In this document: piece after piece, positions 1 through 39,815 of the stretch
How positions within the stretch are numbered: the first letter of the stretch is position 1
Layout of the letters: each line of letters starts with the position of its first letter
Sequence record: ON528716
From: Shigella phage ESh2
Length of the DNA: 39,818 nt
Strand: one strand, 5' to 3'
Program-made: the position numbers and the translations under genes
The notes under the pieces: generated by a model
What the model was told of the DNA's origin: nothing
Database searches by the model: none
Seen by the model: only the letters and a program-made list of their open reading frames with translations

Positions 1-151
1 GGGACGAAAGGTTACTATATAGATACTGAATGAATACTTATAGAGTGCATAAAGTCTGCATAGTGGTGTACCTAAAGTGACCTCTAAGAATGGTGATTAT
101 ATTGTATTAATATCACCTTAACTTAAAGACCAACATAAAGGGAGGAGACTC

Positions 152-301
152 ATGTTCCGCTTATTGTTGACCTTGTTGCGGCATAGAGTCACCTACCGAT
201 TTCTTATGGTACTTTGTGCTGCCCTTGGGTACGCATCTCTTACTGGAGACCTCAGTTCACTGGAGTCTACCGTTTGCTCTATACTCACTTGTAGTGATTA
301 G
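152..301 (+). CDS. 19.5: gene 19.5 small protein (49 aa), right-end gene expressed from phiOR
   Basis: ATG at 152 with SD gggaggag upstream; translation MFRLLLTLLRHRVTYRFLMVLCAALGYASLTGDLSSLESTVCSILTCSD matches T7 gp19.5 as recalled; below ORF-track size cutoff. Confidence 0.8.
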   Translation: MFRLLLTLLRHRVTYRFLMVLCAALGYASLTGDLSSLESTVCSILTCSD

Positions 302-359
302 GGTCTTCCTGACCGACTGATGGCTCACCGAGGGATTCAGCGGTATGATTGCATCACAC

Positions 360-480
360 CACTTCATCCCTATAGAGTCAAGTCCTAAGGTATACCCATA
401 AAGAGCCTCTAATGGTCTATCCGTAAGGTCTATACCTAAAGATAGGCCATCCTATCAGTGTCACCTAAAGAGGGTCTTAG
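360..480. repeat. short cctaaag/ccataaag-type repeats on the right-end side of the terminal repeat
   Basis: Repeated cctaagg, ccataaag, cctaaag motifs visible directly; T7 has analogous short repeats flanking the terminal redundancy. Confidence 0.5.
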
Positions 481-541
481 AGAGGGCCTAATGGGTTCCT
501 AGACGGTCCTTTAAAATATACCATAAAAATCTGAGTGACTA

Positions 542-712
542 TCTCACAGTGTACGGACCTAAAGTTCCCCCCATAGGGGTACCTAAAGCCCAGCCAATCA
601 CCTAAAGACAACCTTCGGTTGACCTTGAGGGTCCCTAAGGGTTGGGATTGACCCTTGGGTTTATCTTTGAGTTGGTCCTTTGGTGTTACCTTGAGTGTCT
701 CTTCTTGTCCCT
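542..712. repeat. terminal repeat (single collapsed copy) containing the physical genome left end / concatemer junction
   Basis: tctcacagtgtacggacctaaagttcccc... matches the first bases of the T7 left end; length about 160-170 bp inferred from T7, cannot be delimited from a single copy. Confidence 0.55.
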
Positions 713-33600: not shown

Positions 33601-34541
33601 GGGATGTTATTAGTGCCACCCTAACGGGTAAGGCTACCCGCTGGGAGAAAGAAGGATTCCTTCGTGGTGCCTCCGTAACTCCTGAGCAGATGGCTGGCAT
33701 CAAGTCTCTCATCAAGGAACATATGGTACGTGGTGAGGACGGGAAGTTTACCGTCAAGGACAAGCAAGCGTTCTCTATGGACCCACGGGCTATGGACTTA
33801 TGGCGACTGGCTGACAAGGTAGCTGATGAGGCAATTCTGCGTCCGCATAAGGTGTCCTTACAGGATTCCCATGCGTTCGGAGCATTAGGTAAGATGGTAA
33901 TGCAGTTTAAGTCTTTCACTATCAAGTCCCTTAACTCTAAGTTCCTGCGAACCTTCTATGATGGATACAAGAACAACCGAGCGATTGACGCTGCGCTGAG
34001 TATCATCACCTCTATGGGTCTCGCTGGTGGTTTCTATGCTATGGCTGCACACGTCAAAGCATACGCTCTGCCTAAGGAGAAACGTAAGGAGTACTTGGAG
34101 CGTGCACTGGACCCAACCATGATTGCCCACGCTGCGTTATCTCGTAGTTCTCACTTTGGTGCTCCTTTGGCTATGGTTGACCTAGTTGGCGGTGTTTTAG
34201 GGTTCGAGTCCTCCAAGATGGCTCGCTCTACGATTCTACCTAAGGACACCATGAAGGAACGTGACCCAAACAAACCGTACACCTCTATAGAGGTAATGGG
34301 TGCTATGGGTTCAAACATGCTGGAGCAGATGCCTTCTGCTGGCTTTGTGGCTAACGTAGGTGCTACCCTAATGAATGCTTCTGGTGTGGTCAACTCACCT
34401 AACAAAGCAACCGAGCAGGACTTCATGACTGGCTTAATGAACTCTACCAAAGAGTTAGTACCTAACGACCCTCTTACTCAACAGCTTGTGGTTAAGATTT
34501 ATGAGGCCAATGGTGTTAACTTGAAGGAGCGTCGGAAATAA
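30585..34541 (+). CDS. 16: internal virion protein D (ejectosome, gp16) with N-terminal lytic transglycosylase domain
   Basis: 1318 aa; MGVYDKSKPSEYDGLFQKAADANGVSYDLLRKVAWTESRF...; matches T7 gp16. Confidence 0.98.
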   Translation: MGVYDKSKPSEYDGLFQKAADANGVSYDLLRKVAWTESRFVPTAKSKTGPLGMMQLTKATAKALGLRVTDGPDDDRLNPELAINAAAKHLAGLVSKFDGDELKAALAYNQGEGRLGNPQLEAYSKGDFASISEEGRNYLRNLLDVAKSPMAGQLETFGGITPKGKGIPADIGLAGIGHSQKVTQELPESTSFDVKGIEQEAPAKPFAKDFWETHGETLDEYNSRSTFFGFKNAAEAELSNSVAGMAFRAGRLDNGFDVFKDTITPTRWNSHIWTPEELEKIRTEVKNPAYINVVTGGSPENLDDLIKLANENFEKDSRAAEAGLGAKLSAGVIGAGVDPLSYVPMVGVTGKGFKLINKALVVGAESAALNVASEGLRTSVAGGDADYAGAALGGFVFGAGMSAISDAIAAGLKRSKPEAEFDNEFIGPMMRMEARETARNANSADLSRMNTENMKFEGEYNGVPYEDLPTEKGAVVLHDGSILSASNPINPKTLKEFSEVDPEKAARGIKLAGFTEIGLKTLGSDDADIRRVAIDLVRSPTGMQSGASGKFGATASDIHERLHGTDQRTYNDLYKAMSDAMKDPEFSTGGAKMSREETRYTIYRRAALAIERPELQKALTPSERIVMDIIKRHFDTKRELMENPAIFGNTKAVSIFPESHHKGTYVPHVYDRHAKALMIQRYGAEGLQEGIARSWMNSYVSRPEVKARVDEMLKEVHGVKEVTPEMVEKYAMDKAYGISHSDQFTNSSIIEENIEGLVGIENNSFLEARNLFDSDLSITMPDGQQFSVNDLRDFDMFRIMPAYDRRINGDIAIMGSTGKTTKELKDEILALKVKAEGDGKKTGEVHALMDTVKILTGRARRNNDTVWETSLRSINDLGFFAKNAYMGAQNLTEIAGMIATGNVRALGHGIPILRDTLYKSKPVSAKELKELHASLFGKEVDQLIRPKRADIVQRLREATDTGPAVSNIVGTLKYTTQELAARSPWTKLLNGTTNYLLDAARQGMLGDVISATLTGKATRWEKEGFLRGASVTPEQMAGIKSLIKEHMVRGEDGKFTVKDKQAFSMDPRAMDLWRLADKVADEAILRPHKVSLQDSHAFGALGKMVMQFKSFTIKSLNSKFLRTFYDGYKNNRAIDAALSIITSMGLAGGFYAMAAHVKAYALPKEKRKEYLERALDPTMIAHAALSRSSHFGAPLAMVDLVGGVLGFESSKMARSTILPKDTMKERDPNKPYTSIEVMGAMGSNMLEQMPSAGFVANVGATLMNASGVVNSPNKATEQDFMTGLMNSTKELVPNDPLTQQLVVKIYEANGVNLKERRK

Positions 34542-34561
34542 TACGACTCACTATAGGGAGA
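34539..34561 (+). promoter_or_regulatory. T7 RNAP promoter phi17
   Basis: taatacgactcactatagggaga, exact consensus. Confidence 0.9.
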
Positions 34562-34613
34562 GGTGGAAGAATCTTCTCCCTGTAGTCTCTTAGATTTACT
34601 TTAAGGAGGTCAA

Positions 34614-36311
34614 ATGGCTAACGTAATTAAAACCGTTTTGACTTACCAGTTAGATGGCTCCAATCGTGATTTTAATATCCGGTTTGAGTATCTAGCCCGT
34701 AAGTTCGTAGTGGTAACTCTTATTGGGGTAGACCGTAAGGTCCTTACGATTAATACAGACTACCGTTTTGCTACTCGCACCACTATCTCATTGACCAAGG
34801 CTTGGGGACCAGCGGATGGCTACACTACCATCGAGTTACGTCGAGTAACCTCCACGACCGACCGATTGGTTGATTTTACGGACGGCTCAATCCTCCGCGC
34901 GTATGACCTTAACGTCGCTCAGATTCAAACGATGCACGTAGCGGAAGAGGCCCGTGACCTAACTGCCGATACTATCGGTGTCAACAACGATGGTCACTTG
35001 GATGCGCGTGGTCGTCGAATTGTGAACCTAGCGAACGCTGTGGATGACCGTGATGCTGTTCCGTTTGGTCAACTTAAGACCATGAACCAGAACTCATGGC
35101 AAGCTCGTAATGAAGCCTTACAGTTCCGCAATGAGGCTGAGACTTTCCGTAACCAAGCGGAGGGCTTTAAGAATGAGTCCAGCACGAACGCAACGAATAC
35201 CAATCAATGGCGCATTGAGGCTGAGGGGTTCCGTAATGAGGCTGAACAGTTCAAGAACACTGCGACACAACAGGCTACCGCTGCTGGGAACTCTGCTGCT
35301 GCTGCTCACCAATCGGAGATTAACGCCGAGAACTCAGCGACTGACTCTGCTAGCTCTGCTCATTTAGCAGAACAGCAAGCTGACCGTGCTGAGCGCGAAG
35401 CAGACAAGTTGGGTAACTGGAATGCTCTTGCTGGAGCTATTGACCATGTTGACGGTACTCGTGTGTTCTGGAAAGGCGAGCAACATTCTGATGGCAGACT
35501 ATATCTAACCACTAATGGATTCGATATTGGGCAGTATCAACAGTTCTTTGGTGGTGTTACTAACCGTTATTCAGTAATGGAGTGGGGTGATAAGTACGGC
35601 TGGCATTTGTACTCGGAGCGTCAAACCGAGGGTGGTACGACAACATTGAACCTTCGAGGACATATGACAGCAAATGGTAACGTCCGCGCTGCTGGTAACT
35701 CCTATACGAATAACCTCTTTGAGATGGACCGAGAGCAGCATTGGCCCGGTCGTGGTGCGTTTGCGAACCAGTATGCGGACAGGGCTGCACCATTTACCAA
35801 GACTGGTCGTTATCAGGCACCTAACGGGTACTCAGAGTATTATCCTATTGTTAAAGCCTATGTTGAAACACAAGGTTACGGGTATGGTACGGTTGCTACC
35901 TTCGGTATGCTAACCTCTGGAGGTGGTAGGTTTGCTAATGGGTGTGTCCACGTTATTGGGGATAATGGTGTTAATGGTCTCTGGCAGTTCGACCCTAACA
36001 CTGGTGGTTTCCTATCACGCGGAGATGTACATGTTGGAGATGGCGGTGTCGTCTACCAGAACGGTGACATATATGGTACGGTGTGGGGTGGTCGGCCTAT
36101 TTCACAGTGGTTAGGGGACCAGACCGTAAACCACATTGCTATGGGTGGTGTTAACTTTGCTCAGCTATGGAATAGTTACGGTATAGGAGATGGTGGTGGT
36201 AAGGTGATCACAGGAATCACCAACAGTAACGCTGATGCGCTAGTCGATGGATGCCAGTGGCGAGTAATGCAGTATGTCCGCAACAACGGACAGTGTTTCA
36301 ATATTTATTAA
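34614..36311 (+). CDS. 17: tail fibre protein; T7-like N-terminal and shaft region (aa 1 to about 326), divergent C-terminal receptor-binding region (aa about 327-565)
   Basis: 565 aa; MANVIKTVLTYQLDGSNRDFNIRFEYLARKF... matches T7 gp17 through ...GGVTNRYSVMEWGD, then diverges into a Gly-rich sequence unlike the T7 tip domain as recalled. Confidence 0.95.
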   Translation: MANVIKTVLTYQLDGSNRDFNIRFEYLARKFVVVTLIGVDRKVLTINTDYRFATRTTISLTKAWGPADGYTTIELRRVTSTTDRLVDFTDGSILRAYDLNVAQIQTMHVAEEARDLTADTIGVNNDGHLDARGRRIVNLANAVDDRDAVPFGQLKTMNQNSWQARNEALQFRNEAETFRNQAEGFKNESSTNATNTNQWRIEAEGFRNEAEQFKNTATQQATAAGNSAAAAHQSEINAENSATDSASSAHLAEQQADRAEREADKLGNWNALAGAIDHVDGTRVFWKGEQHSDGRLYLTTNGFDIGQYQQFFGGVTNRYSVMEWGDKYGWHLYSERQTEGGTTTLNLRGHMTANGNVRAAGNSYTNNLFEMDREQHWPGRGAFANQYADRAAPFTKTGRYQAPNGYSEYYPIVKAYVETQGYGYGTVATFGMLTSGGGRFANGCVHVIGDNGVNGLWQFDPNTGGFLSRGDVHVGDGGVVYQNGDIYGTVWGGRPISQWLGDQTVNHIAMGGVNFAQLWNSYGIGDGGGKVITGITNSNADALVDGCQWRVMQYVRNNGQCFNIY

Positions 36312-36326
36312 TAGGAGGAGTATGGT

Positions 36327-36932
36327 ATGGGAACTTTACGTCACTATAAGAACTTCGTAAACTATGTACCAGAGCGTACCAAAGATAATGCAGACCTTCT
36401 AGACCACGGCGTTGGCTTCTCAAAGGACGAGAATGGGAATGACTGGTATGAACTGCGTAATACATTCCGTGAGGATACATGGAAACTTGTCTATGCCAAA
36501 GACGGTTCTGTAATTCAGTGTGAACAGGATGTTCAGGAGTTAGCCGTTCAGGGTTCTGCTGGTGTGGTTGAACTTGAGGAAATCCCTGCTGAATACTCTC
36601 GGTATAATATGATGCAGTGGTGGTGGGACGGCGAGAAGCTCACTTGGTATCCAAGATACTTTGAGAACCAGAAGGCTCGTCTAATCTCTATGGCCTCCAA
36701 GAAGATTGAGCAGTATGCTGACTTTATGGCGCTTGGGGAGGAGGGGCTAGAAGGCATCTTAAATGCGTGGCGAGCCTATCGCCTTGCTGTATATAAAGTG
36801 GACCTAAGTGTTCTGCCTTTCTATGACTGGCCTGAGAAGCCTGAGGACTTATTAACAACAACACACAAGGAAAGACGTGTAGTCCACGGAAGGACTCTTA
36901 CAAGGAGGACACGTGCTGTCTTTAGATTTTAA
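36327..36932 (+). CDS. putative tail-fibre assembly chaperone (lambda Tfa-like)
   Basis: 201 aa; SD aggagg 8 nt upstream of ATG; C-terminal signature NAWRAYRLAVYKVDLSVLPFYDWPEKPED resembles the W..YR..L..VD.S..P..WP..P motif of Tfa-family proteins; no gene at this position in T7. Confidence 0.65.
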   Translation: MGTLRHYKNFVNYVPERTKDNADLLDHGVGFSKDENGNDWYELRNTFREDTWKLVYAKDGSVIQCEQDVQELAVQGSAGVVELEEIPAEYSRYNMMQWWWDGEKLTWYPRYFENQKARLISMASKKIEQYADFMALGEEGLEGILNAWRAYRLAVYKVDLSVLPFYDWPEKPEDLLTTTHKERRVVHGRTLTRRTRAVFRF

Positions 36933-37116
36933 CAACGAGGTAGTTAAGGCTGCTCCGATTGTAGGGACGGGTGTAGCCGATGGTGCTGCCAGACTCTTTT
37001 GGGGACTTTCATTAAACGAGTGGTTCTACGTTGCCGCTATCGCCTATACAGTGGTTCAGATTGGTGCCAAGGTAGTCGATAAGATGATTGACTGGAAGAA
37101 AGCCAATAAGGAGTGA
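36913..37116 (+). CDS. 17.5: holin (class II)
   Basis: 67 aa; MLSLDFNNEVVKAAPIVGTGVADGAARLFWGLSLNEWFYVAAIAYTVVQIGAKVVDKMIDWKKANKE matches T7 gp17.5. Confidence 0.95.
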   Translation: MLSLDFNNEVVKAAPIVGTGVADGAARLFWGLSLNEWFYVAAIAYTVVQIGAKVVDKMIDWKKANKE

Positions 37117-37121
37117 TACGT

Positions 37122-37391
37122 ATGGAAAAGGATAAAAGCCTTATTACATTCTTAGAGATGTTGGACACTGCGATGGCTCAGCGTATGCTTGCGGACCTTT
37201 CGGACCCTGAGCGTCGTTCCCCACAACTCTACAACGCCATCAACAAACTGTTAGACCGCCACAAGTTCCAGATTGGTAAGTTGCAGCCGGATGTTCACAT
37301 CTTGGGCGGCCTTGCTGGTGCTCTTGAAGAGTACAAAGAGAAAGTAGGTGATAACGGTCTTACGGATGACGATATTTACACTTTACAGTGA
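37122..37391 (+). CDS. 18: terminase small subunit
   Basis: 89 aa from ATG 37122; MEKDKSLITFLEMLDTAMAQRMLADLSDPERRSPQLYNAINKLL... matches T7 gp18. Confidence 0.95.
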   Translation: MEKDKSLITFLEMLDTAMAQRMLADLSDPERRSPQLYNAINKLLDRHKFQIGKLQPDVHILGGLAGALEEYKEKVGDNGLTDDDIYTLQ

Positions 37392-37395
37392 TATA

Positions 37396-37428
37396 CTCAA
37401 GGCCACTACCTATAGTGGTCTTTATGGA
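37396..37428 (+). promoter_or_regulatory. RNase III processing hairpin R18.5
   Basis: ctcaaggccactacctatagtggtctttatggat. Confidence 0.6.
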
Positions 37429-37485
37429 TGTCATTGTCTACACGAGATGCTCCTACGTGAAATCTGAAAGTTAACGGGAGGCATT

Positions 37486-37929
37486 ATGCTGGAATTTTTA
37501 CGTAAGCTAATCCCTTGGGTTCTAGCTGGGATGCTATTCGGATGGGGATGGCACCTTGGGTCAGACTCAATGGACGCTAAATGGAAACAGGAGGTACAGA
37601 ATGAGTACGTTAAGAGAGTTGAGGCTACGGCGAGCACTCAAAGAGCAATCAATGAAATATCGGCTAAGTATCAAGAAGACCTTGCCGCGCTGGAGGGGAG
37701 CACTGATAGGATTATTTCTGATTTGCGTAGCGACAATAAGCGGTTGCGCGTCAGAGTCAAAACTACCGGAACCTCCGATGGTCAGTGTGGATTCGAGCCT
37801 GATGGTAGAGCCGAACTTGACGACCGAGATGCTAAGCGTATTCTCGCAGTGACCCAGAAGGGTGACGCATGGATTCGTGCGTTACAGGATACTATTCGTG
37901 AACTACAACGTAAGCAGGAAATCAAGTAA
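37486..37929 (+). CDS. 18.5: i-spanin (Rz-like)
   Basis: 147 aa; MLEFLRKLIPWVLAGMLFGWGWHLGSDSMDAKWKQE... N-terminal TM; matches T7 gp18.5. Confidence 0.95.
   Translation: MLEFLRKLIPWVLAGMLFGWGWHLGSDSMDAKWKQEVQNEYVKRVEATASTQRAINEISAKYQEDLAALEGSTDRIISDLRSDNKRLRVRVKTTGTSDGQCGFEPDGRAELDDRDAKRILAVTQKGDAWIRALQDTIRELQRKQEIK
37601..37852 (+). CDS. 18.7: o-spanin (Rz1-like lipoprotein) embedded in the +1 frame of 18.5
   Basis: 83 aa from ATG 37601 (SD ggagg); MSTLRELRLRRALKEQSMKYRLSIKKTLPRWRGALIGLFLICVATISGCASE... lipobox ISGC; matches T7 gp18.7. Confidence 0.85.
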   Translation: MSTLRELRLRRALKEQSMKYRLSIKKTLPRWRGALIGLFLICVATISGCASESKLPEPPMVSVDSSLMVEPNLTTEMLSVFSQ

Positions 37930-39792: not shown

Positions 39793-39815
39793 TAATACGA
39801 CTCACTATAGGGAGA
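39793..39815 (+). promoter_or_regulatory. T7 RNAP promoter phiOR (right-end promoter; its transcript continues across the window boundary into position 1)
   Basis: taatacgactcactatagggaga; window end ...gggagagga joins window start gggacgaaagg... to recreate the T7 phiOR leader. Confidence 0.9.

Follow-up and report, generated by a model that had tools for sequence, protein, structure and literature searches.

A probable Mu gpU-type tail fibre assembly gene beside a chimeric gene 17 in the T7-like Shigella phage ESh2

The genome of Shigella phage ESh2 (sequence record ON528716) carries, between the tail fibre gene 17 and the holin gene 17.5, an open reading frame (36327-36932, plus strand) that, as read from the sequence, starts with ATG and encodes 201 residues. 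Its product is very probably a tail fibre assembly protein (Tfa) of the Mu gpU, lambda Tfa and P2 gpG family, serving the chimeric gp17 encoded upstream. The tip of T7 gp17 folds without a chaperone; in ESh2, the fibre tip and tfa form one 1.26-kb block that replaced this self-folding tip.

The window, which is the whole stretch of 39,818 nucleotides that was analysed, holds the complete genome of a Teseptimavirus. Over 25 kb, it shares 92-93% identity with AV103, Bas65, ESh6, Yanou and Bas103, and it is identical to none of them. It represents a whole T7-like genome in circularly permuted form: the right end of T7 (39238-39937) maps to window positions 1-712 at 94%, and the left end of T7 (1-927) to positions 542-1467. 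Both matches cover 542-712, apparently one copy of the terminal repeat. The end of the window (39818) falls just past a perfect promoter at the phiOR position (39793-39815). Elsewhere in the window, a 98-residue open reading frame with a lipobox-like ...ISGCAS... sequence (37556-37852) lies out of frame inside the Rz-like gene 18.5 (37486-37929). This is the arrangement expected for Rz1/o-spanin (T7 gene 18.7), and the same nested pair is annotated in LL2 and Yanou.

The open reading frame and its family

The region is composed of the following features.

34539-34561, plus strand: T7 class III promoter at the phi17 position, matching 23/23 positions of the T7 consensus and driving 17, tfa, 17.5 and downstream genes
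34614-35604, plus strand: T7-type part of gene 17, encoding the tail-attachment domain and coiled-coil shaft, gp17 residues 1-330 (Pfam Phage_T7_tail, 2.9e-73)
35605-36311, plus strand: imported distal part of gene 17, gp17 residues 331-565, of the P2 H / P1 S / Mu S type (no T7 DNA homology; tblastn)
36060-36308, plus strand: terminal domain of gp17, residues 483-565, Mu S-like and the presumed Tfa docking site (Mu S match)
36313-36318, plus strand: Shine-Dalgarno sequence of tfa, AGGAGG, 8 nt 5' of the ATG (read from the sequence)
36327-36851, plus strand: canonical tfa, residues 1-175 ending in ...WPEKPEDL (PF02413, PHROG 136 and 5YVQ_B matches)
36852-36932, plus strand: read-through extension of 26 codons (LTTTHKERRVVHGRTLTRRTRAVFRF) and stop, following an extra T at the ancestral TAA
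36864-36912, plus strand: T7-type 17/17.5 intergenic spacer with the holin Shine-Dalgarno sequence (blastn to T7, 90.9%; T7/PGX1 alignment)
36913-37116, plus strand: gene 17.5, class II holin with a GTG start (Pfam Phage_holin_2_2, 4.1e-34; PHROG 920, holin)

The stop codon of gp17 occupies positions 36309-36311, and 15 nt separate gene 17 from the tfa ATG at 36327, both genes lying on the plus strand. A ribosome-binding site is annotated in the LL2 record at the same place as the AGGAGG of the window tfa, and tfa is predicted to be translated from this Shine-Dalgarno sequence of its own. In T7, gene 17 (34624-36285) is followed directly by gene 17.5 (36344-36547), with no gene between them. 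The GTG start of the holin gene, which alignment identifies as the T7 state, overlaps the 201-codon frame by 20 nt. A preliminary description of this DNA had reported each of these points (a 201-residue frame with a strong Shine-Dalgarno sequence and the C-terminal sequence that it quoted, a position at which T7 has no gene, and a 20-nt overlap with the holin start), and all are confirmed, the T7 arrangement from the T7 coordinates and the overlap from the GTG at 36913.

Over tfa codons 1-173, pN/pS is 0.04-0.15 against six aligned relatives (PGX1, ESh6, LL2, Leclercia 10164-302, Yanou and Kvp1), at a synonymous divergence of 0.29-0.77, and these codons are under strong purifying selection. 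Because of this ratio and the curated profile matches described below, the open reading frame is more than a chance reading frame. No T7-type promoter is found between phi17 and position 39793, and none inside the block, while sigma-70-like and terminator-like sites in 34400-37500 occur at the frequency expected from shuffled sequence. With phi17 upstream and no excess of terminators, tfa is therefore a late gene, transcribed together with 17 and 17.5.

The preliminary description had proposed a Tfa-like chaperone, with a Pfam profile-HMM search as a check. That search aligns residues 45-173 with positions 4-131 of the 131-position profile PF02413 (Caudo_TAP) at 37.9 bits (E 2.4e-9), above the gathering score of 22.1 bits. 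PHROG 136, “tail fiber assembly protein,” is matched at 1e-37, with residues 5-173 on positions 3-177 of 178; the PHROG matches of the frame (E<=0.01) are named for tail fibre assembly, chaperone or tail fibre, together with two families of unknown function. Among NCBIfam models, none matches the open reading frame or the fibre tip. The sole match among solved structures is PDB 5YVQ_B (phage Mu U, 175 aa), with residues 5-173 aligned onto 2-175 (E 2.8e-11). This full-length alignment with Mu gpU and the PF02413 score both support a chaperone of the Tfa family. An AlphaFold2 model of Tfa from a 4-sequence alignment is unreliable (pLDDT 44, pTM 0.33); the order of secondary structure elements in it, strands at 11-107 followed by helices at 109-129 and 134-156, would fit a β-rich N-terminal domain for fibre binding and a helical C-terminal domain for oligomerisation.

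Within the Mu U alignment, DWPEKPE of Tfa is paired with the C-terminal EWPQKPE of Mu U, giving a common terminal WPxKPE motif. As the alignment includes this terminal motif, the “aromatic/WP signature” of the preliminary description is a real hallmark of the Tfa family; its further attribution to T4 gp38-type chaperones fails for want of similarity to gp38. T4 gp38 and gp57A are phage-encoded helpers for trimerisation of the fibre tip (PMC9608196). They offer a functional analogy alone, with no sequence or profile similarity to the window Tfa, and the gp38-type reading was rejected because no Pfam family except Caudo_TAP is matched at E<=1; gp38 is therefore at most a functional analogue.

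A chimeric gp17 and its imported tip

Over aligned residues 1-368, the fibre protein gp17 (565 aa) has 84% identity with its T7 counterpart, and the similarity decays after approximately residue 330. At the DNA level, blastn against T7 returns 86.9% identity over window positions 34401-35604, no homology across 35605-36863, and homology again from 36864 onward at the level listed above, such that the junctions with T7 DNA at 35604/35605 and 36863/36864 are clean. Because T7 homology ends at codon 330 and resumes about 10 nt past the ancestral tfa stop, the intervening 35605-36863 constitutes a foreign block. Its 1259 nt hold gp17 codons 331-565, the 15-nt spacer and tfa, and extend about 10 nt past the ancestral stop codon of that gene. 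The GC content of the block (47.8%, vs 48.5% for the genome) gives no compositional sign of recent import, and the acquisition was thus not recent relative to amelioration.

In tblastn searches, the distal part of gp17 is 31-35% identical to Fels-2 gpH-like, P1-like SJ46 and Yersinia myophage fibres, and 55-88% identical to the fibres of other tfa-bearing T7-like phages. Residues 504-561 match the Mu fibre S (8JU3_A, residues 426-482 of 488) with E values of 3e-5 and 6.8e-6. With Tfa and a Mu S-like gp17 terminus side by side, ESh2 therefore has the two partners of a Mu-type S-U pair. The clean T7 junctions and the Mu S-like terminus bear out the earlier suggestion of an imported receptor-binding cassette with a replaced gp17 C-terminus, and the fibre boundary that was then placed near residue 327 is close to the measured 330.

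Pairwise alignments divide the distal fibre and Tfa into segments of unequal conservation.

Fibre residues 331-482: 20% (Yanou) to 94% (ESh6) identity
Fibre residues 483-565: 66-80% identity in all relatives
Tfa residues 1-95: 96-97% identity in PGX1, Leclercia 10164-302, LL2, Yanou and ESh6
Tfa residues 96-175: 88-98% identity across relatives

The terminal domain is the sole distal segment of the fibre that is common to all Tfa-bearing T7-like relatives, and the DNA is again homologous to that of PGX1 and Yanou from 36052/36053, near gp17 codon 480. Residues 331-482 are far from those of PGX1, Yanou and Bas103, and nearest to those of ESh6 (94%) and Kvp1 (82%). Since the terminal domain and Tfa are conserved while 331-482 varies, the conserved unit is the terminal fibre domain together with tfa. 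The region just upstream of the terminal domain is exchanged freely. From this pattern we infer that Tfa docks on gp17 residues 483-565 and that residues 331-482 carry most of the host-specific variation.

Gene 17 is a mosaic with recurring exchange points, places where the DNA homology to one relative or another begins or ends. They are found at approximately 35039-35062 (codon ~150, the end of the anchor domain), at 35377-35434 and 35604 (shaft), and at 36052 (codon ~480, where the terminal domain starts). In the shaft, residues 151-330, identity is only 31-64%, even for relatives that reach 93-98% in the anchor domain. Additionally, gp17 residues 473-505 (window 36030-36128) resemble T7 gp17 residues 433-464 (45% over 33 aa, pairwise E 0.001) around the pattern HVG..VV..G.I.GT.WGG; fibre tips that are not related in other respects may have this motif in common, immediately ahead of the terminal domain.

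The tfa stop codon and the 26-codon extension

At the end of the canonical gene, the window reads GAC TTA TTA ACA where relatives read GAC TTA TAA (ACC TAA in LL2, GCG TAA in Kvp1); the window allele at 36849-36856 is TTATTAAC, vs TTATAAC for the ordinary stop. In the six aligned relatives, the protein ends at ...WPEKPEDL (or ...PET, ...PEA) after 174-175 aa, and a spacer of about 55 nt (37 nt in Kvp1) separates the tfa stop from the holin gene. In the window, where the stop is lost and the frame runs to 201 aa, the WPxKPE motif is followed by 26-28 extra residues, and the 26-residue extension carries 8 Arg/Lys and 1 Asp/Glu. The Pfam and PHROG matches and the Mu U alignment all stop at Tfa residue 173, and the spacer from 36864, non-coding in T7 and PGX1, is translated as the extension. 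Three close clusters were found in a large protein database, all of 174-175 aa, and an exact-sequence look-up of the 201-residue product found it on record nowhere.

By these comparisons, residues 1-175 alone represent the conserved gene, with residues 176-201 apparently stemming from a private 1-nt insertion. The holin overlap exists because one extra T removed the ancestral tfa stop, in this genome alone. The preliminary description had taken the overlap to mean that the gene was slotted tightly into the late operon; this does not hold, as the stop-loss is private to the genome and the six aligned relatives keep the spacer. The first ~36 nt of that spacer (36864-36899, CACAAGGAAAGACGTGTAGTCCACGG...) show 2 differences from T7 and 4 from PGX1, a higher conservation than that of the coding DNA on either side (87-91% to T7). 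Evaluated as an RNA structure, the 17/17.5 spacer gave fold z-scores of -1.5, 0.05 and -0.8 vs shuffled sequence, which are not significant.

The extra T is no feature of the family: it arose by mutation in this genome alone or is an error of sequencing. It is a serious possibility, short of a likely one, that the 201-residue length and the holin overlap are artefacts of assembly or sequencing, a T having been read as TT, and that the real product is a 175-residue Tfa followed by a spacer of about 55 nt. A single extra T in TTAT(T)AA suffices for this, and the length of 174-175 aa in the six relatives and three database clusters, the lack of any exact record of the longer protein and the translation of an otherwise non-coding spacer all point in the same direction; however, indels also occur among the relatives just past the stop, and natural length variation at this junction is thus real. 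If genuine, a basic extension after a normally C-terminal motif could impair Tfa. That the stop-loss is real and that an Arg-rich Tfa tail of 26 residues is translated across the holin Shine-Dalgarno sequence and GTG, coupling or occluding holin initiation, is improbable. On that reading, lysis timing would shift, or the properties of a tip-resident chaperone would change. The stop-loss calls for a check before a 201-residue product is entered in the annotation of the record.

Distribution, known systems and the proposed role of Tfa

By tblastn, Tfa is found at 82-94% identity in 14 phage records, all of them T7-like Studiervirinae: PGX1, ESh6, Leclercia 10164-302 (two), Leclercia 10164RH, Cedecea Yanou, EmilieLinder/Bas103, LL2 (two), ESh10, Serratia Seera, Kvp1 (two) and Salmonella SPLA4. 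With pairwise alignments included, the identity to their Tfa genes spans 82-97%. The podovirus records with the terminal fibre domain are only these same 14 and, because the same records carry both, the domain and Tfa always travel together. The Tfa-bearing records fall in at least three genera (Berlinvirus, Teetrevirus and Teseptimavirus); judged by these sequences, the block circulates among genera of the Studiervirinae. About 677 records match the gene 17-17.5 region, among which the tfa arrangement is a minority but established variant. Mu-like and P1-like myophages carry the homologues as adjacent S-U gene pairs. In Yersinia phage vB_YpM_23 (MT374856.1), the fibre-tip homologue (36194-36589, plus strand) and the Tfa homologue (37331-37861, minus strand) lie about 750 nt apart, an opposite-strand layout reminiscent of the invertible S-U / S'-U' segment of Mu and P1.

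The novelty implied by the preliminary description does not survive this survey, as 14 public T7-like records annotate the gene and it has been described in print. The arrangement is already known: its annotation dates back to Kvp1 (2008), and a description for Bas103 appeared in 2025. Most of the 14 records label the gene “tail fiber assembly protein”; in the Kvp1 record it is gene 17.2, and a note there refers to Sodalis phiSG1 and gpG, and the LL2 record notes matches to lambdoid assembly proteins. Tfa is also under- or mis-annotated, being labelled “tail fiber protein” in PGX1 (L002 3177-3704) and ESh6 (L006 1060-1587), while a clear PF02413 Tfa in Serratia phage Seera (ON950090, 3449-3967) is labelled “hypothetical protein.” Gp60 of Bas103 has been called a “Mu-like Tfa,” and AlphaFold-Multimer predicts a hexameric complex of it with its fibre; Bas102-104 depend on the O16 O-antigen (PMC11990801). 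The Kvp1 paper treats 17-17.2 only as a region differing from phage Berlin, and its proteomics concern gp10A/B and do not address gp17.2 in the virion (Lingohr et al. 2008; PMC2579914). A literature search found no experimental or functional study of any T7-like Tfa, and nothing for Kvp1 together with tail fiber assembly.

Bas103, PGX1, ESh6, LL2, Leclercia 10164-302 and 10164RH, Yanou, ESh10 and Seera carry the same gene at the same place between 17 and the holin gene, with Tfa proteins 89-94% identical to that of the window (tblastn, over the aligned span; 92.6% for Bas103 Gp60), and the gp17 of each ends in the same terminal domain. Kvp1 17.2 (YP_002308421), the first T7-like gene to be annotated as a tail fiber assembly protein, occupies the same locus at 82.7% identity, with a fibre tip at 80.7%, but differs in its Berlinvirus backbone, T3-like early region, 174-residue Tfa and 37-nt gap to the holin gene. 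Mu U and S (5YVQ, 8JU3) are the nearest solved counterparts; U is homologous to the window Tfa over its full length, and the fibre gene is directly upstream in both phages, although Mu U and the window Tfa are only about 30% identical. Mu is a myovirus, and its S-U pair lies in the invertible G segment. Unlike Mu, the window has its S-U type pair grafted onto the anchor and shaft of a podovirus gp17; an invertible segment is not apparent in the region examined. Lambda Tfa and P2 gpG belong to the same Pfam family, PF02413, and are more distant in sequence. These proteins serve side or long fibres of sipho- and myoviruses, whereas the window Tfa would serve the sole fibre of a podovirus.

The role of Tfa in ESh2 can be modelled on these counterparts. 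According to the passages of PMC9608196 that cite North et al. (2019), the N-terminal domain of Mu Tfa binds the distal fibre, its conserved C-terminal helical region mediates trimerisation and nucleates correct assembly, and the protein stays in the virion. By analogy with the Mu S-U complex and the Mu and Pam3 work, the β-rich N-terminal half of the ESh2 Tfa would bind nascent gp17 chains at their terminal domain. The conserved helical part at the C-terminus, which closes with WPEKPE, would then bring three gp17 chains into register, and trimerisation would start at the distal, Mu S-like end and zip towards the T7-type shaft. Tfa may remain on the virion tip, as in Mu.

A tip-resident Tfa could be one part of a two-component adhesin, in the manner of Mu S-U or T2 gp37-gp38, and aid receptor recognition and host range. 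This proposal is compatible with a chaperone role and may be entertained tentatively: the homology of the open reading frame to Mu U, as it is seen bound to S in 5YVQ, extends from end to end, and the Tfa proteins of both Mu and Ur-lambda are reported to occur in mature particles, and that of Mu to contribute to receptor recognition (PMC9608196). Conversely, the Tfa-like chaperone gp25 of Pam3 is absent from virions (PMC9608196), and Tfa is nearly invariant (88-97%) while the fibre varies among phages whose hosts are as diverse as E. coli, Leclercia, Cedecea and Shigella, a pattern that argues against Tfa as the determinant of specificity.

It is very unlikely that the open reading frame encodes instead a second small tail-fibre or adhesin subunit with no chaperone function. 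The “tail fiber protein” labels in OQ703770 (PGX1) and ON528719 (ESh6), and the same name given to some of the PHROGs that match the N-terminal half, would favour such a subunit; those labels are automatic, however, and assembly proteins are what the curated Pfam family, the top PHROG and the homologue of solved structure all represent. The 175-residue protein, with a β-rich half and two helices in the pLDDT-44 model, is also without fibre repeats or a tail-anchor domain. Equally hard to credit is that tfa is a decaying, non-functional passenger of fibre-tip recombination. A lost stop codon and an added tail foreign to the family would be expected of such a gene, but codons 1-173 are intact, with the low pN/pS given above, and the gene is kept in 14/14 T7-like records that have this fibre terminus. 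A Tfa chaperone acting on the chimeric gp17 is the preferred reading.

ESh2 therefore presents a known arrangement in a new isolate, which is ordinary and answers no open question, and the results matter chiefly for annotation and engineering. Gene 17 can be drawn as a modular map comprising an anchor (residues 1 to ~150), a shaft (to ~330), a variable, putative receptor-binding region (331-482) and a conserved, presumed docking domain (483-565) coupled to tfa, with recombination joints at the borders of the modules. As this tip of the Mu/P2 type is presumably chaperone-dependent, transplanting the gp17 C-terminus to T7 or another scaffold would have to move tfa with it.
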